64,000 nt of DNA from Spirochaetota bacterium (lineage in GTDB: Bacteria > Spirochaetota > UBA4802 > UBA5550). The position numbers and the translations under genes are program-made. The stretch lies in contig CAXXHB010000003.1 of NCBI GenBank assembly GCA_963664815.2, positions 3,104,001-3,168,000 on the forward strand, given 5' to 3'. Numbering within the stretch: position 1 is the stretch's first letter; every line of letters begins with the position of its first letter. Of the stretch, positions 25,806 through 40,967 are shown one piece after another. The notes under the pieces are model-generated. The model was not told where the DNA came from. It saw nothing but the letters and a program-made list of their open reading frames with translations, and made no database searches.

Positions 25806-28800
25806 TTAATGTTTTTTATCCAGAATCTCCCGGACCTTGACTGACAATTCATGCGAGGTGAAAGGTTTGCTTATAAAATTAATTCCCTTCTCAAGGACTC
25901 CCTGTTTGTCTATAACCTCTGCCGTATAACCTGAATTATACAATATCTTTATATCTCCCCGTAATGCCAAAATTTTCTCTGCTGTTGAACGTCCATTAAT
26001 ACCCGGTAAAATAATATCTGTCATCAGCATATGGATCTTATCTTTATAATTCTGCACAACAGATAAAGCCTCTTCTCCACTTTCTGCTGTAAGAACATTA
26101 TATCCTGACTGGATTAAAACATCCCTGCAGAATTCAAGCACTTCGGCTTTATCCTCAACAACCAGAATAGTCTCTGAACCCACAGGCGAAGCTGATTGTA
26201 CACGGGTCTGCGGTGATTCCGCTTTAATCTGAGAAGATACCGGAAAATATACTTTAAATACAGTACCGCAGTCTATTTCGGAGTAAACCTCAATTGTCCC
26301 TCCGTTTTGCTTTACAATTCCATATACTGTAGCAAGACCCAGCCCTGTCCCCCGCTCCTTCTCTTTTGTTGTAAAAAACGGTTCAAAGGCATGGTCAAGT
26401 ATATCTTTGTTCATGCCAGTTCCCGTATCGGATACAGCCATCATTACATAATCGCCGGCGATTACACCGGGATGAATCTGTGAATAATTATCATCAAGGT
26501 AAACACCGGATGTCTCGATTGTAAGTATACCTCCGCCGGGCATGGCGTCACGGGCATTGGCTACAAGATTGATTATTATCTGTTCCACCTGCCCCGGATC
26601 GGCTTTTATTTGAGACACTTTTTCTCCCGGGATTACACTCAGTTTTATATTCTCGCCGATAAGCGTAAGTATCACCTTATACACATGTTCTATCAAATCA
26701 TTCAGGTTTACAACCTTGGGTTCAATGATCTGCTTACGCGAAAACGCTAAAAGCTGTCTTGTAAGATTAGCAGCCCCTTCTGCTGCATTTTTTATAACGG
26801 TGAGCCTCGAATAAGGTTTCCCTTCAGGGTCCAGCTGCCTCATAGCCATTTCAGTGTTTCCCATTATTGCAGTCAGCAGGTTGTTAAAATCGTGAGCAAT
26901 CCCGCCGGCAAGCCGGCCAAGTGATTCGATTTTTTGAGAATGTAAAAGCATCTCTTCAAGCCGTGATTTTTCTGCTTCTATTCTTTTTCTTTCGGTAATA
27001 TCTAAAGCTGTAAAAGTAAGTCCCGCAGATATATCTTCAGGGTCAAAGGGACTCAGGCACAAGATTACATCTATAATAATCCCGTCTTTTCGTTTAAGAC
27101 GGGATTCGATTATTCCAAGTCCTGTCTTCTCCATCTGTGAGTTTAATTCGGCATCTGCCCTCATATATTCATTTTCATTTATATAAAGCATCAGTGTATT
27201 CTTTCCAATAAGTTCCTCCTCCGTATAACCGACAATTTTACACAACGAATTGTTTACCTTTATATGAACGCGGTTAATAAGCAGACTAACACCTATTGGT
27301 GTTGCATCAAGCAGGCTTTTCAGCATAGCTTCATTTTTTTTCAGGTCTTCCTCTGCCCGCTTGCGTTCTGTTATATCAAGAGCGGTAACTACAACTCCTT
27401 TTGCTATATCTTCTGTATCCAGACGGCTCATAGAGAGTAAAATATTGATAATAGACCCGTCTTTGCGTCTGACGCGTGTTTCTGTTATTCCCATACCTCC
27501 ATTTTCTGTTTGAGGATATATATCACGTCCTACCCGATTGAACTCTTCATCATCAGGATAAAAAAGACGGGCTGATTTTCCCAACAGCTCCTCTTCAGAA
27601 TAGCCTGCCATTTTACACATAAAGCTGTTTACTTTTACAAACATGCGATCAATAAGCAGTACAATCCCTATCGGGCTTACATCAAATATCTTTCTTAGGA
27701 AGGTTTCACTGTCTTTTAAAGCTTCTTCAGCATGTTTCAGTCCTGTTATGTCAAGGGTTATCGCTACATCGCCGGCCTTTTCATCGTTGGGATTAACACG
27801 GTTTAGGCAGATTAATGCGTTCATTACCGAACCGTCTTTTCGTCTTAAGAAAGTCTCTATCATGGAAAGTCCTTCGCTGGTCCTGTTGTAATATATTTCC
27901 CCCACACGATTGTATTCTTCATCGCTGAAATAGAGTTGCCGTGTTGATTTTCCCACAATCTCTTCTTCTGAATACCCGGTAATTCTGCAGAAAGAATTGT
28001 TGACTTTTACCGGTATTCTGCCATGAATCAGCAATATTCCAGCCGGACTCGCTTCAAATATACTACTGAAAAGTGCTTCGCTTTTTCTCAGTGCTTCCTC
28101 TGCTTTTTTACGTTCGGTTATATCACTGAAAACACCTTCAATTCCGGATATATTCCCTTCTTTGTCATAATAAAACTGACTGTTGGTTGAAACAATAACT
28201 GGCTCACAGTTATCCATACGCTTTAACGTTACTTCGTAATGTGTTATTTTACCATGTTCGTGAAGATTTTTAAGCAGTTTTTCACGTTCCCCGGTATAAT
28301 AATAAAATTTTTTACTTAAATTCATCCCGATAATTGCTTCAGGAGAAGTGCATCCGAGCATCCGCACAGCTGATGGCGACGCAAAAACAAGATTACCGTT
28401 TAAATCACAGCGATAAGCCGCATCCTGCATATTTTCGACAAGAGAGCGATACTTTTCTTCACTTTCCATTAAAGACTGCTCTGTCTTTTTAAGCACTGTT
28501 ACATCAAGCACCGTTGCAATAACTCCATATTTCAGATCTCCCGGATTCACAGGACTGAGGCATATAAGGACATTTATTACGGATCCATCTTTCCTCCTCA
28601 AACGCGCCTCCGCCATTCCCAGACCGTCACGTTCCATCTCTTTGTAGGTTTGGCCTACGCGGTTGTACTCATCATCATTTAAATAAAGGTGTTGCGTTGT
28701 TTTCCCAAGCAGTTCTTCTTCTGAATAACCTGTGATCCTGCATAGTGAATGATTTAGTTTAATAATTGTCCTGTCAATTTTGTGCAGCGAGATACCCGAT

Positions 28801-29996
28801 GGGCTTGCTTCAAATATGCTTCGCAGCAGAGCCTCGCTGTTTCGAAGGGCTTCTTCTGCCTGTTTGCGTTCTGTAATATCGATCAATATTATTACAACAC
28901 CTGCCGAAGGGCTGTTAACGTCAATTGCCCTTACACACAATAGTGCCTGATAAGCAGAACCGTCTTTGCGTCTGTAGCGCGTTTCAATCAAACTATAACC
29001 CTTTTCCTTAACTTCAGAATAAACCTGATTCGAAACGCGGTCGGAATCTTCTTTTGTACAATACATCATTTCAGTGCTGTGCCCGATTATTTCCTCCGGA
29101 GCATATCCTGTTATTTCACAGAGTGTGTTGTTTATTTTTATATGAATGCGGTTTACAAGAAGCGCTATGCCTACAGGAGCAGCGTCAAAAAGAGATGTAA
29201 GAATTGCCTCGTTTTTACGAAGCTCTTCTTCCACATGCTTCCTTGAAGTAATGTCTTTAAAATCCCACACGCGACCGAATTTAACACCTTCACTTATTAA
29301 CGGCGAAGAATACCTTTCAAATGTTCTGCCATCCCGGAATCTTATTTCATCAAAACTCTCCAGGTCTGTGTTGTATAAATACTCAACCTTTTCAATGAAA
29401 CCTGATGGATCCTCAACCAGATCGATAACATAATTAATCAGGTTTTTGTCATCTCCGGAATCAAGAATATGCTTTGGCACTTTCCACATCTCAATTAACT
29501 GCCTGTTTATCTGACTTATTTTATTGTCTTTGTCTACCAGAAGAATTCCGTCTGCTGTTGTATTTAGTGTTGTCCTTAAAAGTTCTTCTTTGCGCTTTAA
29601 TTCTTTTTCAACATCTTTGCAACCGGTAATTTTTCTGAATGTTGCTGCAAGATTGATCCGACCGTTATAATACATGGGGGATGCAGCAATATCCGCATAA
29701 AATAATTTTTTCTCTCTTGTTAAAACAGGAACATCTTTTATCAGTTCTATATCTTTATTTAATAACTTTTGGAATGATTCTTTCACTTGCTGCAGTATTT
29801 CTTTGGGGTGTATATCATATATGCTGATATTTACAAGCTCATCTTGTGTATAACCGAGCATCATACATATTGCACGGTTGCTGAGAACTGGTTTTTCAGT
29901 TTCAGCATCTATCAGTACTATACCGTCAATTATATTGTTGAAGATATATTCAAATGTTTTATCTTTCTCAGATGTCGGGTTGTCTTTTTGATCCAT
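25806..29996 (-). CDS. Cytoplasmic hybrid histidine kinase with 8 PAS domains (CckA-like core)
   Basis: Eight PAS units; H-box GGIAHDFNNLLT; NARDAMP; GTGLGL; REC ILVVED...MTDIILP. Confidence 0.94.
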   Translation of the reverse strand: MDQKDNPTSEKDKTFEYIFNNIIDGIVLIDAETEKPVLSNRAICMMLGYTQDELVNISIYDIHPKEILQQVKESFQKLLNKDIELIKDVPVLTREKKLFYADIAASPMYYNGRINLAATFRKITGCKDVEKELKRKEELLRTTLNTTADGILLVDKDNKISQINRQLIEMWKVPKHILDSGDDKNLINYVIDLVEDPSGFIEKVEYLYNTDLESFDEIRFRDGRTFERYSSPLISEGVKFGRVWDFKDITSRKHVEEELRKNEAILTSLFDAAPVGIALLVNRIHIKINNTLCEITGYAPEEIIGHSTEMMYCTKEDSDRVSNQVYSEVKEKGYSLIETRYRRKDGSAYQALLCVRAIDVNSPSAGVVIILIDITERKQAEEALRNSEALLRSIFEASPSGISLHKIDRTIIKLNHSLCRITGYSEEELLGKTTQHLYLNDDEYNRVGQTYKEMERDGLGMAEARLRRKDGSVINVLICLSPVNPGDLKYGVIATVLDVTVLKKTEQSLMESEEKYRSLVENMQDAAYRCDLNGNLVFASPSAVRMLGCTSPEAIIGMNLSKKFYYYTGEREKLLKNLHEHGKITHYEVTLKRMDNCEPVIVSTNSQFYYDKEGNISGIEGVFSDITERKKAEEALRKSEALFSSIFEASPAGILLIHGRIPVKVNNSFCRITGYSEEEIVGKSTRQLYFSDEEYNRVGEIYYNRTSEGLSMIETFLRRKDGSVMNALICLNRVNPNDEKAGDVAITLDITGLKHAEEALKDSETFLRKIFDVSPIGIVLLIDRMFVKVNSFMCKMAGYSEEELLGKSARLFYPDDEEFNRVGRDIYPQTENGGMGITETRVRRKDGSIINILLSMSRLDTEDIAKGVVVTALDITERKRAEEDLKKNEAMLKSLLDATPIGVSLLINRVHIKVNNSLCKIVGYTEEELIGKNTLMLYINENEYMRADAELNSQMEKTGLGIIESRLKRKDGIIIDVILCLSPFDPEDISAGLTFTALDITERKRIEAEKSRLEEMLLHSQKIESLGRLAGGIAHDFNNLLTAIMGNTEMAMRQLDPEGKPYSRLTVIKNAAEGAANLTRQLLAFSRKQIIEPKVVNLNDLIEHVYKVILTLIGENIKLSVIPGEKVSQIKADPGQVEQIIINLVANARDAMPGGGILTIETSGVYLDDNYSQIHPGVIAGDYVMMAVSDTGTGMNKDILDHAFEPFFTTKEKERGTGLGLATVYGIVKQNGGTIEVYSEIDCGTVFKVYFPVSSQIKAESPQTRVQSASPVGSETILVVEDKAEVLEFCRDVLIQSGYNVLTAESGEEALSVVQNYKDKIHMLMTDIILPGINGRSTAEKILALRGDIKILYNSGYTAEVIDKQGVLEKGINFISKPFTSHELSVKVREILDKKH

Positions 29997-30839: not shown

Positions 30840-32060
30840 TCATAACATATCGCTTCCTGAGGGATTCTGGAATAGTCTAAGCCCGAATTCCGGAATTACG
30901 GCTATTAGATGTTCAAATATCTCTGCAACAGTTACCTCGTATTCCACAACATCAATAATATTTGTGAACACATATATCTGAAGCGGAATTCCGTTTGCTG
31001 TCGGTTCTAAAAGCTTCGCCATCAGTTTCTTTTCACTGTTAATCCCGGTATGACTTACAAGATAAAGTTCAACATATTTTCTGAAGATTCCTATGTTAGT
31101 AATACCGCTTTTATTAATCCTCTCATCCCTGCCGTATTTTACCGTCATTGCAAGTTCTTCCAGTTCATCACTCCCCTTAAGTATGGCAAGTTTCTGAATC
31201 CTCTTTAAAATCTTTTCATCCGGAAGGGTTATGCTGTTTATATCAATGTATATCACCCGTTTAATTCTTCTCCCGCCCGATTCTTTTACACCATGCCAGT
31301 TTTTGAAAGTTTCAGAGATGAGAGAATAGGCGGGGATCATACTGATAGTATTATCCCAGTTCTTTACTTTTACTGTACTCAGGGATATGTCGATTACTTC
31401 TCCGTTTACTCCATACTTTTCCATTTCGATTGAATCACCTATCACTACAAGGTTATTTGCATTGATCTGGATACTTGCTACAAGCCCAAGTATCCAGTCA
31501 CGGAAAATCAATATTATCAGAGCGGTCATTGCGCCGAATCCGCTCAATATTCCCCATGGTGACTTGTTGAAAAGCACAGATACAATCACTATTGCTACGG
31601 TGATAGCAAGAAAAATCTTAAGCATCTGCAGATATCCCTTTATCGGGTTCTTTCTCGAAACTTCAAATTCCTGATAATAATGATCCAGGGCATCAAGAAA
31701 CGCATTTACAGTAAAAAGTCCCATGGCTGCCAGTGTTGAAAATAGAATTCTTTCCAGTATCGTTCCGAATCTCGGGGTATCGGAAAATATAAACTCTGTT
31801 GTGAAATACAAAACCACAAACGGAAACATCCTGTTAAGCTTCCTGTATACATCTTTTTTTAGAAGAGACCTGTTAAACGGGATAATATCATTTTCTGCGG
31901 ACCTCACCGCGATTCTGTTTACAATCCATCCGGCGGCTTTCCCGAGAGTAAAGCTTACAACAAGGGCGATAACCAGTCTTATACATACATCCCCCATAAC
32001 TATAAGCTTTCTGTGCCAATCAACAGAATATAACCATATTGTCAGTATTTCGTTCATCAA
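30840..32060 (-). CDS. Mechanosensitive channel, MscS family (YbdG/MscM-like)
   Basis: PIKGYLQMLKI, LIFRDWILGLVASIQI, VKVKNWDNTI, FKNW...ESGGRRIKR, FGLRLFQNPSG. Confidence 0.9.
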   Translation of the reverse strand: MMNEILTIWLYSVDWHRKLIVMGDVCIRLVIALVVSFTLGKAAGWIVNRIAVRSAENDIIPFNRSLLKKDVYRKLNRMFPFVVLYFTTEFIFSDTPRFGTILERILFSTLAAMGLFTVNAFLDALDHYYQEFEVSRKNPIKGYLQMLKIFLAITVAIVIVSVLFNKSPWGILSGFGAMTALIILIFRDWILGLVASIQINANNLVVIGDSIEMEKYGVNGEVIDISLSTVKVKNWDNTISMIPAYSLISETFKNWHGVKESGGRRIKRVIYIDINSITLPDEKILKRIQKLAILKGSDELEELAMTVKYGRDERINKSGITNIGIFRKYVELYLVSHTGINSEKKLMAKLLEPTANGIPLQIYVFTNIIDVVEYEVTVAEIFEHLIAVIPEFGLRLFQNPSGSDML

Positions 32061-32091
32061 CTATTCTCCATTGTTATCAGATTTGCAAATA

Positions 32092-33858
32092 TCAAATATT
32101 CAGCTGGTTTCCTGTAATCTGTTTTAAAAGTTCCATTGCCGCTTCTTCCGGGCCGTTCATTTCATAACCCGAAATTCCAAGCCTCGTTCTGATCTGTCCG
32201 ACAAAAACATCTCCGGCAAAAAATGCATCAAAGAATCTCACAGCAAGTTTATCGTGAAGATCCCTGTACTGCGGTGGCCCGAATATATTCGCAAAGTATG
32301 AATGAACTATCCCGGTTGAAGTGGTTGTCCCCTTGCTCATAACCATCCCTTCCCTGAAAACATGGAAAGCATGATCAACTGATGTAAACCTTTCGATTAT
32401 CGGATGATATTCATCAACCTGTTCGTAATTGTTTGCATAGAGAACCATATCAATTTTATATCCTTTTATCACAGCAGCATATGTTGTGACCGGGAGTATT
32501 ATCCTCGCATTTACTTTCGTGGCACTCATGAGAATCGATCTGTCTATCTGTCCAAAGGCGTATCCCGGTTTGAGATCGTCAATACGCAGGAATGCGCCTA
32601 TTTCAGTTCCGCAGGCAACTACATCTCCGTTTTCCTTAAGTTCGAGGGAACCCATATCATCGGCAACTACAATCATATCCCGCATGTACTCACGTCCGGC
32701 ATTACGGAATGCTTCAAGTGTTTCAGACTTCCCCGCACCCGTATCGCCCATAAGAAGAATTGTGGATTCTTTATCACCCTTCAGCAGTACTTTGACAAGC
32801 GCTCCATGAAACGGAAGTCTCCCTCTTTTCATCATAATAGCATTATGAAGAGTCAATACCATCTTTTTCAGATATCCGAAATAACCGAACATATCACGGT
32901 TGGGACATGCTCCGACCATAATTCCCTCTTTTTCATCATCAAAGAATACAACCGGAATTTCATCAAATCTGTCAAGTTTATCACCCGGCACACCAAAAAG
33001 GAAAATAGCATCCGGTTTAATCGAAAGATCGGCATCATCAGCAAGTTCAAAAAGATTACACAGGGAAAAGCCCAGTTCATAGAATGATTCATGAAAGTAT
33101 ATATTTACCACGAGTTCCCCAACTTTCGCAGGGTAGCATATCCACTCAATACTGTTTATCCCAATCAGGTCGAGCGGATTCTCTTCTATTTTAATAAAGC
33201 TCCCGGATCTCTTATTACTCCTTGGTTCAAGAATCACAGGAGGATTAAGAAGTATCTGCCGTATAATCCTTATATCTGAAAGCTTTTCAAAGGAACCTTC
33301 AGGGTATGGTACCTTCCAGGGAATCCCTATAGCGGCAATACCGGCACCAGCGGATAACTGTCTGTATATCCGGGGATGAGTACCGGTAATATTCTCCTGT
33401 ATGTCACGGTATGCACCCATTACAAGATCATTAAGTTTTTCAACAGTCTGGTTGAATGTCCGGTATGGTCTCCTGTCAAGATTATCCCCTTCAGAATCGC
33501 ATATCACATAACGTTCAAAGCTCCTCCAGTAATTATAAAGATTTTCTATAAAATCATTCAGCAGCTGTATATCCCGGAGGAACATGGCCGATTCGGGAAT
33601 TATTTTCGGGATATAGCTTCCATCAAGCCTTATAAGGTTCTTCAGGGTTATATGCAGTATATGTATCTTTTCTTCAGTAATTTCCCCTTCAAAGATATTC
33701 AGAAATCTCGACTGATGTCCATCAAGCTCTTTAATAAACCTGTTGAGTATCCTTACAAAAAGTTCACTCTGCAGCAACTCTTCTCTTGTCTCGCACAAGC
33801 GTCCCTTTGTATGGATAATAATCTTGTTTTCTATTTCCCTGTAACTTGTTATAGCCAT
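32092..33858 (-). CDS. PEP-carboxykinase-like protein (PEPCK/HprK P-loop superfamily)
   Basis: YFGYLKKM, LPFHGA, P-loop GDTGAGKSET, VADDMG, NARI; AAGGAG SD. Confidence 0.75.
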   Translation of the reverse strand: MAITSYREIENKIIIHTKGRLCETREELLQSELFVRILNRFIKELDGHQSRFLNIFEGEITEEKIHILHITLKNLIRLDGSYIPKIIPESAMFLRDIQLLNDFIENLYNYWRSFERYVICDSEGDNLDRRPYRTFNQTVEKLNDLVMGAYRDIQENITGTHPRIYRQLSAGAGIAAIGIPWKVPYPEGSFEKLSDIRIIRQILLNPPVILEPRSNKRSGSFIKIEENPLDLIGINSIEWICYPAKVGELVVNIYFHESFYELGFSLCNLFELADDADLSIKPDAIFLFGVPGDKLDRFDEIPVVFFDDEKEGIMVGACPNRDMFGYFGYLKKMVLTLHNAIMMKRGRLPFHGALVKVLLKGDKESTILLMGDTGAGKSETLEAFRNAGREYMRDMIVVADDMGSLELKENGDVVACGTEIGAFLRIDDLKPGYAFGQIDRSILMSATKVNARIILPVTTYAAVIKGYKIDMVLYANNYEQVDEYHPIIERFTSVDHAFHVFREGMVMSKGTTTSTGIVHSYFANIFGPPQYRDLHDKLAVRFFDAFFAGDVFVGQIRTRLGISGYEMNGPEEAAMELLKQITGNQLNI

Positions 33859-33923
33859 TTTTATCTCTCCTTTAAAAACAGGGTTGCCGGGAATTCCAAC
33901 CGGTACGATGTTTTTTATTCCCG

Positions 33924-34050
33924 AAAAAACGAAAAAAGCCGGCGCTTATGCAACCCGCTTCATTACTCCGTGTATTCATTACACCGGATAACAGAAAAAG
34001 AAGGCAACATAAAAGCCGGCTTACCATCAACTGCCCCGAGGGCCTTTGAT
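33924..34050 (-). ncRNA. Candidate cis-regulatory leader RNA (hairpin plus long intrinsic terminator, attenuator-like)
   Basis: AUCAA-AG-GCCC-UCG-GGGC-AG-UUGAU hairpin, then AAGCCGGC...GCCGGCUU long interrupted stem followed by U6-CG-U6, ending about 65 nt before the start codon. Confidence 0.65.
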
Positions 34051-34083
34051 AAATCTTCCGTGTTTAATTTTTAATTAAGAGCG

Positions 34084-34111
34084 ATAAAAACACCATCACT
34101 AAAACGGTCAA
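34084..34111 (-). promoter_or_regulatory. Possible sigma70 promoter for the leader and PEPCK-like gene
   Basis: TTGACC-N16-TTTTAT with a TG extension. Confidence 0.35.
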
Positions 34112-34166
34112 CCATTTTTTTAGTTCACCCGGATTTTTTAAAATTAACTTGTTTCTTCGGACTTTA

Positions 34167-34541
34167 TTATTTTTTACATTTATCTTCAAAATTCTGCTCA
34201 AGCGTAAAAAGAATAATCCGTTCATCTGCTTCAGTGCTCAAATCAGTATAAAGGCTTTTCACTTTAAGCCCGGTAATATCAAAAATAATCGCTTCAAGCA
34301 AAGGCTTTGCATTTTCAAGAAGCATAATACGAACCTGCTTTATCAGCGAATGCCCTTCGTCATTTTTTGTAAGCTGCTCCTCTGCTTTTGTCAGAACACC
34401 CTTTAATCTGACGACAATCATGTCATCAATGATGTATGATTTAGTCTCCACGGGACCACGCCCCATGTACTCCTTTTCAAATCTAATCATTGCTGCACAA
34501 ATCTCGGCCTCAATCATACCCTTTGTTTTTACCTGTATCAT
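34167..34541 (-). CDS. DUF2294 / MpsC-family protein
   Basis: GRGPVETKSYIIDDMIVVRLKGVLTKAEEQL...LIKQVR...ITGLKVKSLYTDLS...ERIILFTL matches the family pattern as I recall it. Confidence 0.85.
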   Translation of the reverse strand: MIQVKTKGMIEAEICAAMIRFEKEYMGRGPVETKSYIIDDMIVVRLKGVLTKAEEQLTKNDEGHSLIKQVRIMLLENAKPLLEAIIFDITGLKVKSLYTDLSTEADERIILFTLEQNFEDKCKK

Positions 34542-34691: not shown

Positions 34692-35624
34692 TCACAAAGC
34701 GGTCATCATATCATAACTCCTGAAAATGTTTTTAAGCATCGGATCTGTCACTACCGCAAGTACTACGCTCTTTTCCAAGTCATCCATGAAAACCTTTTCT
34801 CCGGCAAAGTATTCGACAGCCTTCACCGGATCTGGGAGATCCCTCACCATATTCACAAGGAATGACAGTCTCTGCATGTCCCTCTTCTCAAAAGGCAAAC
34901 CTTTCTCCCTGTTAAAATCTGTTCTTTCCCTGTACTGTTTAAGTATATCGCTGAGTTTACCGAACTGCTGAAGATCAAGCCTGTACTTTTCAATGAAATC
35001 CATCGTAAGAGCCTCGCCGGTATCAACTTCCGCCATCATAAGAATAATATACTGAAAGAGATGATAGTTTCTTGATATAATAGATCTTAAGATTTCATCC
35101 GGAAGTTTGATGAATGAGCCGATAAATGATTTCATACCTTTTATCTTCAGGAAATATGTATTCAGCATCTCATTATCAAACTTTGTAAGTATCATAAACA
35201 GCAAAAGTTTATCATTGTTTATATAAGTCGAATTAAGCGCAAGATCAAGAAGTCTCTTATTATCAAGGAAAAAAAGTATTTCATCAAGTACCCTGTCAAT
35301 GGAATTATCATACATCATGCAGTATCCGAATACAAACATTATCAGCCGTTCAAGTTTATCGAGTGTAAATTTTTCGGAATTAATATACTTTTGAAGATGT
35401 TCCATGTCGCGGAACAGCATAAGAAAATATATAAACTGCTGGTTCACCTCATAATCATCAGAAGCAAACACATTATCCACAAGCTCCAGAAATTCATCGA
35501 GTGTTATATTTTCAAAAATCGGTTTGACCTTGTTGATCTGCGGAAAAGATGAATCACTCATGATCGCTTCAATATAAAAAAGCTGATATCTGCTAACCTC
35601 GCCTTCTCTGACTTCTGTATCCAT
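34692..35624 (-). CDS. Hypothetical helical protein
   Basis: 310-aa ORF, co-oriented and closely spaced with the upstream ORF; no recognisable motif. Confidence 0.75.
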   Translation of the reverse strand: MDTEVREGEVSRYQLFYIEAIMSDSSFPQINKVKPIFENITLDEFLELVDNVFASDDYEVNQQFIYFLMLFRDMEHLQKYINSEKFTLDKLERLIMFVFGYCMMYDNSIDRVLDEILFFLDNKRLLDLALNSTYINNDKLLLFMILTKFDNEMLNTYFLKIKGMKSFIGSFIKLPDEILRSIISRNYHLFQYIILMMAEVDTGEALTMDFIEKYRLDLQQFGKLSDILKQYRERTDFNREKGLPFEKRDMQRLSFLVNMVRDLPDPVKAVEYFAGEKVFMDDLEKSVVLAVVTDPMLKNIFRSYDMMTAL

Positions 35625-37571: not shown

Positions 37572-40500
37572 TTGTTGATTTATTCTACAATTGTTTTACC
37601 TTTAATACATGATTCTTTCAGAATCATGGGAGAAATCTTTGTGACAGGGATCATTTCAGGACTGACTTCAACATTTTTTTTAACCCAGCTCTCCGTCGGT
37701 TCAATTATACTGACAGTATTTGGACTTTCGGCTGCGGTTTTTTTTCTGCGTCCCGGCAATAAAACACCAGCAACATCGCATTTGGGCCTTGCATTTCTGT
37801 TTTTTGCTGTATTTCATTTTGCCTATTTTTTTGCCTTCAGTTTTTATCATCCATTTACTGCATTTCACAGGTGGCTTACCGTAACATTTGTGCTGCTTAA
37901 CGAGATACACATGACTCGTTACATTTTATGCTTCCCCGATGACAGAAACAGCAAACTGGCCAATATTGTATTACTTATACAATATATAATATCAATCCCG
38001 ATAATACTGTTTTTTTTCATGTCCACATACTCCGCATATCCTGTATTCCGTTTTGATGGTCACTATTGGGATTTCAATGCCGGTTTTTCTAGCAGCCTTG
38101 TCGGTCTTCTCATAGTTCTCAACAATATTACCTATATCATCTTTTTTGCATTCAGACTTATTCAGCTGAAAAAAAAAGAATTCAACTGGATGCTTTTTAC
38201 GGGAGCAGTTTTCATTATCGGTTCAATTATACCCGCTTTTTTAAACACAATGAATCTTCACGGTTATATCATGAGGGAGTCTTTTCAGACCATTACCAAT
38301 ATGTCACATCTTTTCATGTTTACCCTCCTGGCTTTAGCACATCTCAGCATGACTAAAGACCGTTTTACTTTTATGGGTAAAATCGCAGGGATCACCACCG
38401 TGACCTTTTTCACAATTTTCATAGTAAATGCACATTTTACTTTCATCGAGATGGAGAATACTTTCACAAAATTAAAATACTACGACTTAAAGATTGGTCT
38501 TCACGATGAAACGAACAAAGGGAATTTGATGTTTTTAAACTGCTACTCATTCAGGACTAACAACTTTCTCAATTGTGACAGCATTTTTAAAAACAGGGAT
38601 AAATCATTATCACCGGATTTCTACAGCAGATCTGAATACTTCAACACTGCCGTCTACGAAAAGATAAAAAACCTTCCGGATAATAACTTCGATGAAAATC
38701 TTAACTCAATAATGTCGAAGGGTGACGAATATTTTTCATGCTATAAAAGATTTATACTCTCAGTCAATAAATCACTGCCTGAAAATATCAAAAACAGGGG
38801 CGGTATAATATGCCGCAGGATAGACTCTATACAGGGCTACCTGCAGTACAACTACAACCATATACGCCATCTTCCTGAAAACGGTTTCCGCAGAGCCCTC
38901 CTGCTTCACCTGAAAAAAACATCGCCGGATTTCAGCGATTTCAGCAGCACAATCATTTCATATATTGAAACCTCCCCTGTTACAGATAATGAAAGCCTGA
39001 GGCATAATGTTCTCCATTTTATTGAAAATATGCAGCCTTCCGGTTCACAAAGGTTCAGAGAAATCCAGAACGAGACACATCTTGTATCCTCATTCTTTTA
39101 CGATGCACAATCAGGTTTAGTTTATGAAGGCATGTTCAGCTACCTGTCATACAGAGAATTCATGCATGGACCAGCACTCAGGATGATTCTGCTGATGATC
39201 GGAGTCATGCTCTTCATTGTTCTTGTATATCCATTCTTCTTTTTATGGTCGGTTTATATCCCGCTTAATGCTCTTCTCGGAGGAGTAAAAAAAGTTATTG
39301 ATGACGATCTCGATTTTACTGCCCCGGTATATTCCGAAGATGAAATAGGTTTTATAACCGGATCATTCAACAACATGGTTACCAGATTGAAGGAGAACAG
39401 AGATACAATTTCCAGATCCGAGACTAGGTTCAGGGAACTCAATGATCTCCTACCTGACATTATTTACGAAACAGACATGAACCTTAATATAATTTACATG
39501 AATAAAGCAGGATTTAACCGGACTGGATACACTGATGACGACATATCAAACGGGCTTTCATTCCGTCAGCTGCTTAATAAAGATGAAATAAACCTGCTTG
39601 AACAATTCATAAATAATAATTCAGTCCAATGTACAGGGATATTCAGCCGCACACATGATCTTTTAACTAAAAACGGCAACATTTTCAAGGGAGAAACCCG
39701 CGCGGTATTTATCTGCAATAACACAATACCATCGGGGCTTCGCGGTATAATCCGTGATGTTACAGACAAGCTCAGAACCGAAGACGCGCTGCTGCAGCTT
39801 CAGAAAATGGAAACGATCGGAACACTGATTGCCGGGCTCACTCATGATTTCAACAATATTCTTGGCGGGATAACCGGGCCACTGTCTCTCCTTATGTTTT
39901 CAATTCAGAAAAAAGGAGCAGTTTCTTCCGAGAAGCTTGATATGCACCTGAATACAATGAATGAATCGGTTAAAAGGGCCACAGAACTTGTACAGCAGCT
40001 TGTCTTCCTTTCCAGGAAGGAAGATACCAATCTTACACCTGTAGATATAAAATCGTCTATAGAACATATTACACGAATCTGTTCAAGCGCATTTGACAAG
40101 AATATTGAAATAATTAAACATATCCCGGATGAAGAGATTACCGTCAGGGCAGACCCTACACAGATTGAGCAAATGCTTCTTAATATCTGTATAAACGCAA
40201 GTCATGCAATGACTATCATGCGCGGATCAGATGAACAGTATGGCGGCAAGCTGATTATATCTCTTGACAGAATCAATGCCGATGAACATTTCAGGGTAAC
40301 ACATCCTGATGCCGCAGATGAACTCTACTGGAAAATATCTATAACAGATACCGGTGTCGGTATGGACAGCAATACTATATCAAAAATCTTTATTCCTTTC
40401 TATACTACAAAAGAAAGAGGAACCGGTACAGGTCTGGGACTTGCCATGGCTTATAACATAGTCAGGCATCACCGCGGATTTATTGATGTGTACTCCGAAC

Positions 40501-40967
40501 CCGGATCAGGAACAACCTTTAACATCTATCTCCCGATCCAGTCCGGTGGAAACCGTATGTCATCAGCGGGAGTTGAAACATTTATACCACGTGGTGAAGG
40601 TAAAATCCTTATCGCTGATGATGAAGAATCAATACTGCTTACCTCAAGATTAATGCTCGAACGATGCGGTTATACTGTCCTGAGTGCCTGTGACGGCGCC
40701 GAGGCTTTAAAAATTTACAGTGAAAATTCTGATGAAATAAAAGCAGTTGTACTTGATTTTGTAATGCCGAAAATGTCCGGCGAACAGGTTTACCGGAAAT
40801 TGATAAAAATCAATCCCGATGTCAAAGTATTACTGGCATCGGGAATGTTGAACGATGACAGAATTGAAAGGCTGTCAATCAGCCGCGGATGTCTTTTTAT
40901 TCAGAAGCCTTACACTTTTGAAAATCTGGCCGTGGCAATATTTAAGTTACTCAACAATATCTGCTGA
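37572..40967 (+). CDS. Membrane hybrid histidine kinase (multi-TM sensor, extracytoplasmic domain, HAMP, PAS, HisKA, HATPase, REC)
   Basis: HAMP PLNALL...DEIGFITGSFNNM; H-box GLTHDFNNILG; GTGLGL; REC ILIADDE...VLDFVMP. The real start is probably GTG 37641 (GGAGA SD). Confidence 0.92.
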   Translation: MLIYSTIVLPLIHDSFRIMGEIFVTGIISGLTSTFFLTQLSVGSIILTVFGLSAAVFFLRPGNKTPATSHLGLAFLFFAVFHFAYFFAFSFYHPFTAFHRWLTVTFVLLNEIHMTRYILCFPDDRNSKLANIVLLIQYIISIPIILFFFMSTYSAYPVFRFDGHYWDFNAGFSSSLVGLLIVLNNITYIIFFAFRLIQLKKKEFNWMLFTGAVFIIGSIIPAFLNTMNLHGYIMRESFQTITNMSHLFMFTLLALAHLSMTKDRFTFMGKIAGITTVTFFTIFIVNAHFTFIEMENTFTKLKYYDLKIGLHDETNKGNLMFLNCYSFRTNNFLNCDSIFKNRDKSLSPDFYSRSEYFNTAVYEKIKNLPDNNFDENLNSIMSKGDEYFSCYKRFILSVNKSLPENIKNRGGIICRRIDSIQGYLQYNYNHIRHLPENGFRRALLLHLKKTSPDFSDFSSTIISYIETSPVTDNESLRHNVLHFIENMQPSGSQRFREIQNETHLVSSFFYDAQSGLVYEGMFSYLSYREFMHGPALRMILLMIGVMLFIVLVYPFFFLWSVYIPLNALLGGVKKVIDDDLDFTAPVYSEDEIGFITGSFNNMVTRLKENRDTISRSETRFRELNDLLPDIIYETDMNLNIIYMNKAGFNRTGYTDDDISNGLSFRQLLNKDEINLLEQFINNNSVQCTGIFSRTHDLLTKNGNIFKGETRAVFICNNTIPSGLRGIIRDVTDKLRTEDALLQLQKMETIGTLIAGLTHDFNNILGGITGPLSLLMFSIQKKGAVSSEKLDMHLNTMNESVKRATELVQQLVFLSRKEDTNLTPVDIKSSIEHITRICSSAFDKNIEIIKHIPDEEITVRADPTQIEQMLLNICINASHAMTIMRGSDEQYGGKLIISLDRINADEHFRVTHPDAADELYWKISITDTGVGMDSNTISKIFIPFYTTKERGTGTGLGLAMAYNIVRHHRGFIDVYSEPGSGTTFNIYLPIQSGGNRMSSAGVETFIPRGEGKILIADDEESILLTSRLMLERCGYTVLSACDGAEALKIYSENSDEIKAVVLDFVMPKMSGEQVYRKLIKINPDVKVLLASGMLNDDRIERLSISRGCLFIQKPYTFENLAVAIFKLLNNIC

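Follow-up and report, generated by a model that had tools for sequence, protein, structure and literature searches.

In the hut operon of Bacillus subtilis, the small regulator gene hutP stands directly before an intrinsic terminator, with the genes under its control beyond, and termination is prevented when the oligomeric HutP protein binds to RNA at a site of spaced UAG triplets. In the BglG, SacY, and LicT systems, a ribonucleic antiterminator (RAT) hairpin that contains internal loops shares sequence with the 5' arm of the terminator and is outcompeted by it unless a dimeric protein acts as a clamp. Protein-dependent attenuation is already known, and the protein family and the RNA described here would be new to it. 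The window analyzed here is a stretch of 64,000 nucleotides (nt) from a Spirochaetota bacterium (GCA_963664815.2, contig CAXXHB010000003.1, positions 3,104,001 to 3,168,000). Its minus strand contains a gene for a small protein of the DUF2294 (MpsC) family, a leader RNA in which a rod hairpin overlaps an intrinsic terminator, and a gene for a protein of 588 amino acids (aa) with a predicted phosphoenolpyruvate carboxykinase (PEPCK) fold, referred to as PCKL. We consider it probable, at roughly 60%, that this locus is one copy of a widespread two-part module composed of the DUF2294 protein and a cis-acting leader RNA, in which DUF2294, probably as a dimer, clamps the rod and lets transcription read through the terminator.

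The leader fills a gap of 308 nt between the DUF2294 gene (34167-34541, minus strand, 124 aa), the product of which is the proposed trans-acting factor, and the PCKL gene (32092-33858, minus strand), the proposed first regulated gene. A preliminary description of this DNA had reported the minus-strand succession of DUF2294, a structured terminator-containing leader, a PEPCK-like gene, and mscS with a 31-nt gap, and all of these were found in place. The 308-nt leader folded at -91.8 kcal/mol (z = -3.77), and none of 100 shuffled sequences folded as well. The motif AUCAA-AG-GCCC-N3-GGGC-AG-UUGAUGGUAAGCCGG was read at 34050-34016. The rod hairpin (34017-34060, minus strand), which is backed by its fold, by covariation, and by invariant pairs, comprises an outer helix P0, in which CGG (34060-34058) is paired with CCG (34019-34017), a symmetric purine loop, in which AAG (34057-34055) lies opposite AAG (34022-34020), and a stem P1 (34054-34023) that takes in the AUCAA...UUGAU stem. 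The intrinsic terminator (33932-34022, minus strand) is a long hairpin (34022-33936) followed by a run of six U residues (33937-33932); its 5' arm starts from AAGCCGGC (34022-34015) and its 3' arm is GCCGGCUU (33943-33936). At its base the terminator shares nucleotides with the rod: the 3' side of the purine loop and of P0 (UAAGCC...) is also where the terminator 5' arm begins, so that only one of the two structures can form at a time. When the RNA was cut before the terminator 3' arm, the minimum free energy (MFE) fold was the rod with P0 (-17.1 kcal/mol), and the MFE fold of the full-length leader was the terminator. The leader therefore has the features of an attenuator, namely a G+C-rich hairpin and a U run before an open reading frame (ORF) together with a competing upstream structure, and termination is predicted. 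An antiterminator made of RNA only, in which GGAAGA would pair with a downstream complement, was looked for by eye and none was seen; in the full-length MFE fold the 5' tail pairs with the U run.

The leader was kept in five other loci of the same genus with compensatory changes in its stem, and the flanking intergenic DNA was not conserved. A covariance model (R1), of the kind called for in the preliminary description, was built from six same-genus leaders and was followed by later models (R2 and R3). R1 matched the window at 112.4 bits (E 8.4e-24), as the sole strong copy in the genome, and R2 scored 94.6 bits on the same leader, with the full match (33928-34066, minus strand) taking in both the rod hairpin and the terminator. 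More distant copies were detected by R1 in other genera, before the same PEPCK-like gene, before a gene for pyruvate, phosphate dikinase (PPDK), and before a DUF4914 gene directly after DUF2294. In an alignment of 14 sequences, 96.2% of the cells were paired and 14 pairs changed on both sides, and in an alignment of 58 sequences from many phyla, 92.5% of the cells were paired and 29 of 32 pairs changed on both sides. None of 500 shuffles reached these values in either alignment, and slid controls gave 38-52% and 30-48%, respectively. P1 covaried in both alignments. The consensus reads U-GG-AAG-AC(U), then P1 with a conserved CAA...UUG core, then (A)GU-AAG-CC-RRC and the remainder of the terminator. 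Of 55 distinct sequences, 54 had the P0 pair G8-C121 and 53 had G9-C120, and the loop purines were nearly invariant (G-A in 57, A-A in 49, and A-G in 47 of 58 sequences). The same AAGCC nucleotides also build the terminator base, the helix of which was paired in 98.9% of the cells among 55 distinct sequences, with five of eight pairs changing on both sides. The whole window gave no match to Rfam 15 with cmscan at gathering thresholds, and the matches between 33700 and 34750 were at chance level (E 0.39-8.4), far under the gathering scores; no known riboswitch was assigned to the leader. The leader is one copy of a conserved RNA outside Rfam.

Nearly invariant unpaired purines beside a covarying stem that overlaps a terminator also suit a protein-independent riboswitch, which is the main rival explanation. 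Here, a ligand (e.g., bicarbonate/CO2, phosphoenolpyruvate (PEP), oxaloacetate, or a nucleotide) would bind at the purine loop and P0 region and stabilize the rod against the terminator, and DUF2294 would be a linked enzyme, a chaperone, or a sensor of the same pathway rather than the partner of the RNA. Tandem copies, which are known for some riboswitch classes, were found in three loci (L077:1527-1769, L108:2922-3179, and L129:2908-3127), and two copies were also found within one further locus (L062:4-108 and 1956-2077). Moreover, the genes after the element form a metabolically coherent regulon, and DUF2294 has no recognizable RNA-binding fold. On the other hand, the element lacks any multi-helix junction and consists of a simple rod, and its distribution among genomes, as described below, is tied to DUF2294 in a way that makes a riboswitch unlikely.

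Among 101 relatives of the window's genome, PF10057 (the DUF2294 profile) was present in 21, and R2 matched at E < 1e-4 in 14 of these 21 versus none of the 80 PF10057-negative relatives. When the scans were run with filters off, the motif was detected directly after DUF2294 in six more genomes (E 3.7e-8 to 3.1e-4). The only PF10057-positive genome in which it was missed was G031, whose DUF2294 and PCKL genes are degraded: a truncated DUF2294 (profile positions 2-60) adjoins three PCKL fragments (L011/L059, G031:C14:97369-98024), one of which holds a stop codon, and the module is decaying in this genome. Matches of 25-30 bits to R2 were obtained in 12 of the 80 PF10057-negative relatives. Six of the weak R2 or R3 matches (25-39 bits) in PF10057-negative genomes were inspected, lacked the CAA/UUG core of P1 and the GUAAGCC junction, and resemble plain terminators. 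In a sample of 401 genomes from the window's phylum, PF10057 was present in 18, and the motif lay just 3' of the gene in all four new loci; 24 of 25 DUF2294-positive genomes in the sample of this phylum carried the motif. A sample of a second phylum contained PF10057 in 3 of 121 genomes, and R3 exceeded 70 bits in exactly those three and in none of the other 118, with the motif 74-81 nt after DUF2294; matches of 34-39 bits in two other genomes of this sample resembled plain terminators.

The motif without an adjacent DUF2294 gene was found only in genomes that encode DUF2294 elsewhere. Such copies, with no DUF2294 within 1.5 kb, preceded PPDK genes (G079 and G026) and a PCKL paralogue (G007). 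The PCKL genes of four PF10057-negative genomes (G004, G005, G017, and G018) had no motif, and the RNA thus follows DUF2294 and not the target gene. Each genome contained one or two copies of the motif, and a metagenome-assembled genome (MAG) with two DUF2294 genes had two motifs, one after each. A divergent DUF2294 paralogue in G007 (L060), with an identity of 20%, had no motif, and a DUF2294a-motif-DUF2294b order, with the second paralogue divergent, was observed in L083, L114, L136, and G510:C2:70023-71835. The preliminary description had asked for a check of whether the motif lies near other DUF2294 genes and co-occurs with them across genomes, and on both points these counts are in its favor. 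A riboswitch would have no reason to depend on one upstream gene, yet strong matches were found in 0 of 80 and 0 of 118 DUF2294-negative genomes, and it is DUF2294 that forms the constant neighbor, whereas the regulated gene varies.

The association also held across phyla. A pattern scan of species genomes yielded 80 DUF2294 loci with at least 15 phylum labels by record title, including Spirochaetota, Planctomycetota, Elusimicrobiota, Omnitrophota, Thermodesulfobacteriota, Nitrospirota, Hydrogenedentota, Aminicenantes, Aerophobetes, Latescibacterota, Firestonebacteria, Nitrospinota, and others. R2, run with default filters, matched the coding strand in 60 of the 80 loci at 11-241 nt past the stop codon of DUF2294 (median ~48 nt); in these loci DUF2294 lies upstream of the element and outside its control, which counts against a riboswitch. 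Among the other loci, one had the motif 1.2 kb downstream, one had it upstream only, and 18 gave no match. With such a median spacing, a promoter would hardly fit in between in most phyla. In the window, the leader element lies ~100 nt from the DUF2294 stop codon, and a box of the form TTGACC-N17-TTTATC (34083-34111, minus strand), a possible promoter with a non-canonical -10 element, lies between them. The preliminary description had called this region promoter-like; a sigma-70 consensus scan of the leader and gap listed no promoter, but the box recurs at the same position in same-genus loci (L002-L005 and L012) and also in L019-L022, so that this label is partly confirmed.

The short spacing and the strong terminator at its end would also be compatible with the element being the 3' end of the DUF2294 transcript, i.e., a conserved terminator and 3' untranslated region structure that stabilizes or autoregulates the mRNA, with any downstream effect being incidental leaky readthrough. 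This seems very improbable, since copies precede PPDK and the PCKL paralogue with no DUF2294 gene within 1.5 kb, DUF2294 and the leader are separated by a promoter-like box in this and some other genera, the downstream genes are non-random (27 of 43 with a PEPCK fold), and the match lies upstream of DUF2294 in L141 and L127 (E 1.2e-4 and 5.7e-3). The gene after DUF2294 in L141 resembles, by eye and by its N-terminus, a monomeric isocitrate dehydrogenase.

For 43 loci, the product of the first ORF downstream of the motif was scanned, and PEPCK-fold enzymes occupied this position in 27 of them. GTP-PEPCK (PF00821 and PF17297) was found in 17 loci, the 588-aa PEPCK-like family, with members 47-76% identical to one another, in eight, and DUF4914 in two. 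Other first genes encoded SAICAR synthase (three loci), DUF2294 paralogues (three loci), citrate synthase (two loci), GH18 (two loci), and, in one locus each, pyruvate:ferredoxin oxidoreductase (PFOR), a class-I/II aminotransferase, a NuoL-like protein, a hexapeptide protein resembling gamma-carbonic anhydrases, and PMT. In G025, a GH18-like gene, recognized by eye, lies between the motif and the PEPCK-like gene. In a MAG labeled Nitrospirota (G431), DUF2294 and the motif are followed by two consecutive Proton_antipo_M genes and then DabA, an inorganic-carbon transporter operon of the MpsAB/DabAB type (DabB-DabB-DabA). The theme of the regulon is the PEP/pyruvate/oxaloacetate node together with CO2, and the enrichment of downstream genes asked about in the preliminary description was observed for enzymes of the PEP/oxaloacetate/CO2 node and for this one DabB-DabB-DabA operon. 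The remark there that the window lacks MpsAB/DabAB genes can be widened, as no DabA (PF10070) turned up in the entire genome to which the window belongs (96.2% complete).

The 124-aa protein matched PF10057 at 130.1 bits (cut-off 23, E 4.7e-38) over profile positions 1-111 of 111, and this was its sole Pfam match. It was 50-68% identical to 10 orthologues from its own phylum and 56-88% identical to proteins from loci with other phylum labels; the PF10057 profile also matched the B. subtilis control genome. A single-sequence model of the monomer reached a predicted local distance difference test (pLDDT) score of 82. The homodimer model passed, with a score of 0.53 versus 0.00 for the best of three controls, and the runs agreed in at least 96% of contacts with a partner pLDDT of at least 84. 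Of proteins with solved structures, 20 of 30 that are pairs of one chain attained the passing mark, as did 1 of 23 that are single chains; these counts apply only roughly here because the alignment of the present analysis was used. The predicted interface is symmetric and involves residues 36-43 and 95-113, with the conserved FEKEYMGRGP segment outside it, and a two-fold DUF2294 of the kind modeled would suit the symmetric purine loop. A search of the PDB with the DUF2294 sequence gave no match, and the weak Foldseek matches of the monomer model (designed proteins, H-NOX, YajQ, and ribosomal proteins, at TM-scores of 0.45 or below) were not significant. As there was no significant PDB match, it is the genomic association that points to RNA binding by DUF2294.

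The name MpsC comes from the mpsABC locus of Staphylococcus aureus. In the paper on MpsAB (PMC6689103), mpsC is reported as lying after mpsAB, with a weak terminator between them, and as dispensable for MpsAB and not a functional part of it; outside staphylococci it is not collocated with mpsAB. By that account, the role of a transporter subunit is removed and room is left for a regulator, which agrees in part with the preliminary description, where DUF2294 had been proposed as a regulator rather than a transporter subunit. In a further explanation, another factor (e.g., some other RNA-binding protein or a factor of general termination) would act on the RNA, and DUF2294 would be a signal-sensing or DNA-binding partner at another level. 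Nothing in the data points to it directly, no gene other than DUF2294 is constant beside the motif, and the LBF_1199-family neighbor is kept within the genus only; we therefore regard it as quite improbable.

With DUF2294 as the RNA partner, the switch could operate as follows. The nascent leader would fold into the rod, with P0 (GG with CC), the AAG/AAG loop, and the covarying P1. Since P0 alone is too weak, the terminator would win over the rod and the default state would be OFF. A DUF2294 dimer would bind the rod at the purine loop and hold P0 closed, the closed P0 would block the terminator, and transcription would then enter the PEPCK-fold gene and mscS. What the data show is the RNA with its covariation, its overlap with the terminator, its strict association with DUF2294, and its regulon; the binding of RNA by DUF2294, the direction of the effect (antitermination), and the signal are what we infer.

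What the switch would respond to is probably connected with the PEP/oxaloacetate/CO2 node. Inorganic carbon is one plausible candidate, to which the PEPCK-dominated regulon, one Dab operon, one hexapeptide gene, and one PFOR gene point circumstantially, and a C3/C4 metabolite or a gluconeogenic signal would fit the same regulon. It is rather doubtful that DUF2294 is a new class of antiterminator that senses CO2/bicarbonate or a tightly coupled metabolite in at least 15 phyla and that would use one conserved rod-terminator RNA to turn on PEP carboxykinases, PPDK, PFOR, and bicarbonate transporters of the Dab type. If this were true, it would be the first CO2-responsive attenuation system, the orphan mpsC would be explained, and the 588-aa family and DUF4914 would be marked as unrecognized PEPCK-type carboxykinases.

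Several observations weigh against antitermination by DUF2294. Foldseek found no match of the DUF2294 model to the PDB at E <= 0.001, and HutP, TRAP, PyrR, and CAT domains were not among the matches listed. As reported in PMC6689103, deletion of mpsC in S. aureus had no growth phenotype, although growth alone was assayed. The promoter-like box separates DUF2294 from the leader in this genus, so that the regulator is probably not co-transcribed here in the manner of hutP. Riboswitches for small molecules just as typically have highly conserved unpaired nucleotides beside a terminator. P0 has no support from covariation because its two G-C pairs are invariant, and its two further outer pairs were present in just 35 of 55 sequences each. 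The alignments behind the pairing percentages were fitted to the model, which favors the modeled structure, and related genomes are non-independent samples. Among the 18 of 80 loci without a default-filter match, nine gave only weak matches after DUF2294 (12.8-19.7 bits, E 0.006-0.42). One of the 18 ends at a contig end with GGAAGA...UAAGCC visible, and six share, by eye, a variant leader ...CUGGAAUAAGAGGUCGA... with a terminator, which R2 and R3 barely detected. Finally, a PF10057-negative genome (G020) gave a borderline R3 match of 38.4 bits at locus L147, which is either a decayed or divergent copy or due to chance.

The L147 sequence (G020:C211:531-615, minus strand) consists of UGGAAG, a hairpin, and ACAGGCCGG with a terminator, and its genome is 99% complete with 6% contamination. 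In the six variant-leader loci (L105, L119, L135, L138, L139, and L142), the variant sits 300-400 nt after DUF2294, the titles read Desulfobulbaceae or Desulfobulbales, Deltaproteobacteria or Pseudomonadota, and several have a TTGACA promoter-like box before it.

The name PEPCK-like, used for the 588-aa protein in the preliminary description, had weak support from its sequence and held at the level of the fold. The protein had no Pfam match, it scored 20.5 bits against the NCBIfam PEPCK model NF006821 (cut-off 369), and phmmer and a 20-sequence profile gave only chance P-loop matches to PDB sequences. An AlphaFold2 model with 20 homologues reached a pLDDT of 79.6 and a predicted TM-score of 0.81, and all 50 of the PDB matches listed by Foldseek were PEPCKs. 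The top match was 2pc9_D (E 2.4e-13 over 464 aligned columns, TM-scores 0.43/0.49), and the identity to solved PEPCKs was ~15%. An hhalign comparison with 12 GTP-PEPCKs from the collected loci, at a modest probability of 44.7% (E 2.2e-4, 173 columns), put a Y-x-G-x-x-K-K...H segment, the P-loop, and a DD motif in register; KK...H, the P-loop, and the DD motif are presumably the catalytic residues of PEPCKs. The PCKL family included 4,327 proteins at E <= 0.001 among 8,000 candidates scored. Among the matches listed, relatives were 57-88% identical and labeled Spirochaetota, Bacteroidota, Omnitrophota, or Desulfobacterota, and some are named phosphoenolpyruvate carboxykinase by NCBI. Three of the 43 downstream proteins scanned, PCKL relatives from other genomes, reached PEPCK_ATP at E <= 1e-5 (best 5.2e-9). 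Neither PEPCK_GTP (PF00821) nor PEPCK_ATP (PF01293) was found in the window's genome, and PCKL was the only PEPCK-fold protein found there. Because PCKL stands behind the motif where other phyla have GTP-PEPCK, and no other PEPCK gene was found, the modeled protein may be the working PEP carboxykinase of this organism. DUF4914 (PF16260), another motif target (L025:144-1418 and L134:3100-4992), has a GASGGGKSE P-loop. The H/P-loop/ADDM region of DUF4914 was aligned with that of the 588-aa family at an hhalign probability of 76.8%, and from this alignment DUF4914 may be a third PEPCK-related kinase family.

The PCKL gene is followed after 31 nt by an MscS-family gene (30840-32060, minus strand), whose 406-aa product contains the MscS beta-domain (PF00924, 48.8 bits versus a cut-off of 20.2, E 7.6e-13) and which is probably co-transcribed with PCKL. 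The PCKL-MscS order is the same in the same-genus loci L002-L005. Upstream of DUF2294 lies a gene of the LBF_1199 family (34692-35624, minus strand, NCBIfam E 1.3e-18, under the family cut-off), which takes this position in 4 of 4 same-genus loci and is not kept beyond the genus. Two very large sensor proteins of 1396 aa (25806-29996, minus strand) and 1131 aa (37572-40967, plus strand) flank the region; by eye, the translation of the former shows many near-repeated modules and a C-terminal end resembling a kinase and a receiver.

In the open literature, supplementary files and most subscription journals aside, nothing was found on this RNA or on any RNA-related role of DUF2294. If antitermination by DUF2294 holds, a function would be assigned to a widespread orphan family, and a new protein-RNA pair would be placed beside the few known attenuation proteins. 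For many uncultured anaerobes, it would furthermore reveal the control of the PEP-oxaloacetate-CO2 branch point, at which the choice falls on either gluconeogenesis or CO2-fixing fermentation. Attention is also drawn to the 588-aa family and DUF4914 as two unstudied enzyme families that have a PEPCK fold or PEPCK motifs. With one small protein and a 45-nt RNA, the hypothesis is directly testable.

The arrangement resembles hutP in its order of regulator, terminator, and targets, the element following the DUF2294 gene at 11-241 nt in 60 of 80 loci. In contrast to HutP, DUF2294 shows no likeness in sequence or fold in the PDB sequence and Foldseek searches, the candidate RNA site is formed by a rod hairpin and its symmetric AAG/AAG loop instead of spaced UAG triplets, and a promoter-like box stands between DUF2294 and the leader in this genus. 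With LicT and its RAT hairpin, the module shares a rod that overlaps the terminator 5' arm and, as far as the passing dimer model indicates, a dimeric protein. DUF2294 differs from BglG and LicT in having neither a CAT nor a PRD domain, PF10057 being its only Pfam match, and the RNA differs in sequence and loop geometry, while the regulon belongs to central carbon metabolism and not to sugars of the phosphotransferase system. As in transcriptional ON riboswitches, conserved nucleotides and a covarying stem compete with a terminator in the 5' leader; unlike these, the RNA belongs to no Rfam family, is tied to one protein gene, and has a single-hairpin architecture. The 588-aa protein shares the overall fold of ATP- and GTP-PEPCKs in its model, but it falls under every curated family threshold for the known enzymes. 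DUF2294 belongs to the same family (PF10057) as S. aureus MpsC, and one lineage pairs the DUF2294-motif unit with DabB-DabB-DabA. By comparison, the window's genome has no DabA, and mpsC of S. aureus is reported in PMC6689103 to follow mpsAB behind a weak terminator and to be dispensable for MpsAB function.

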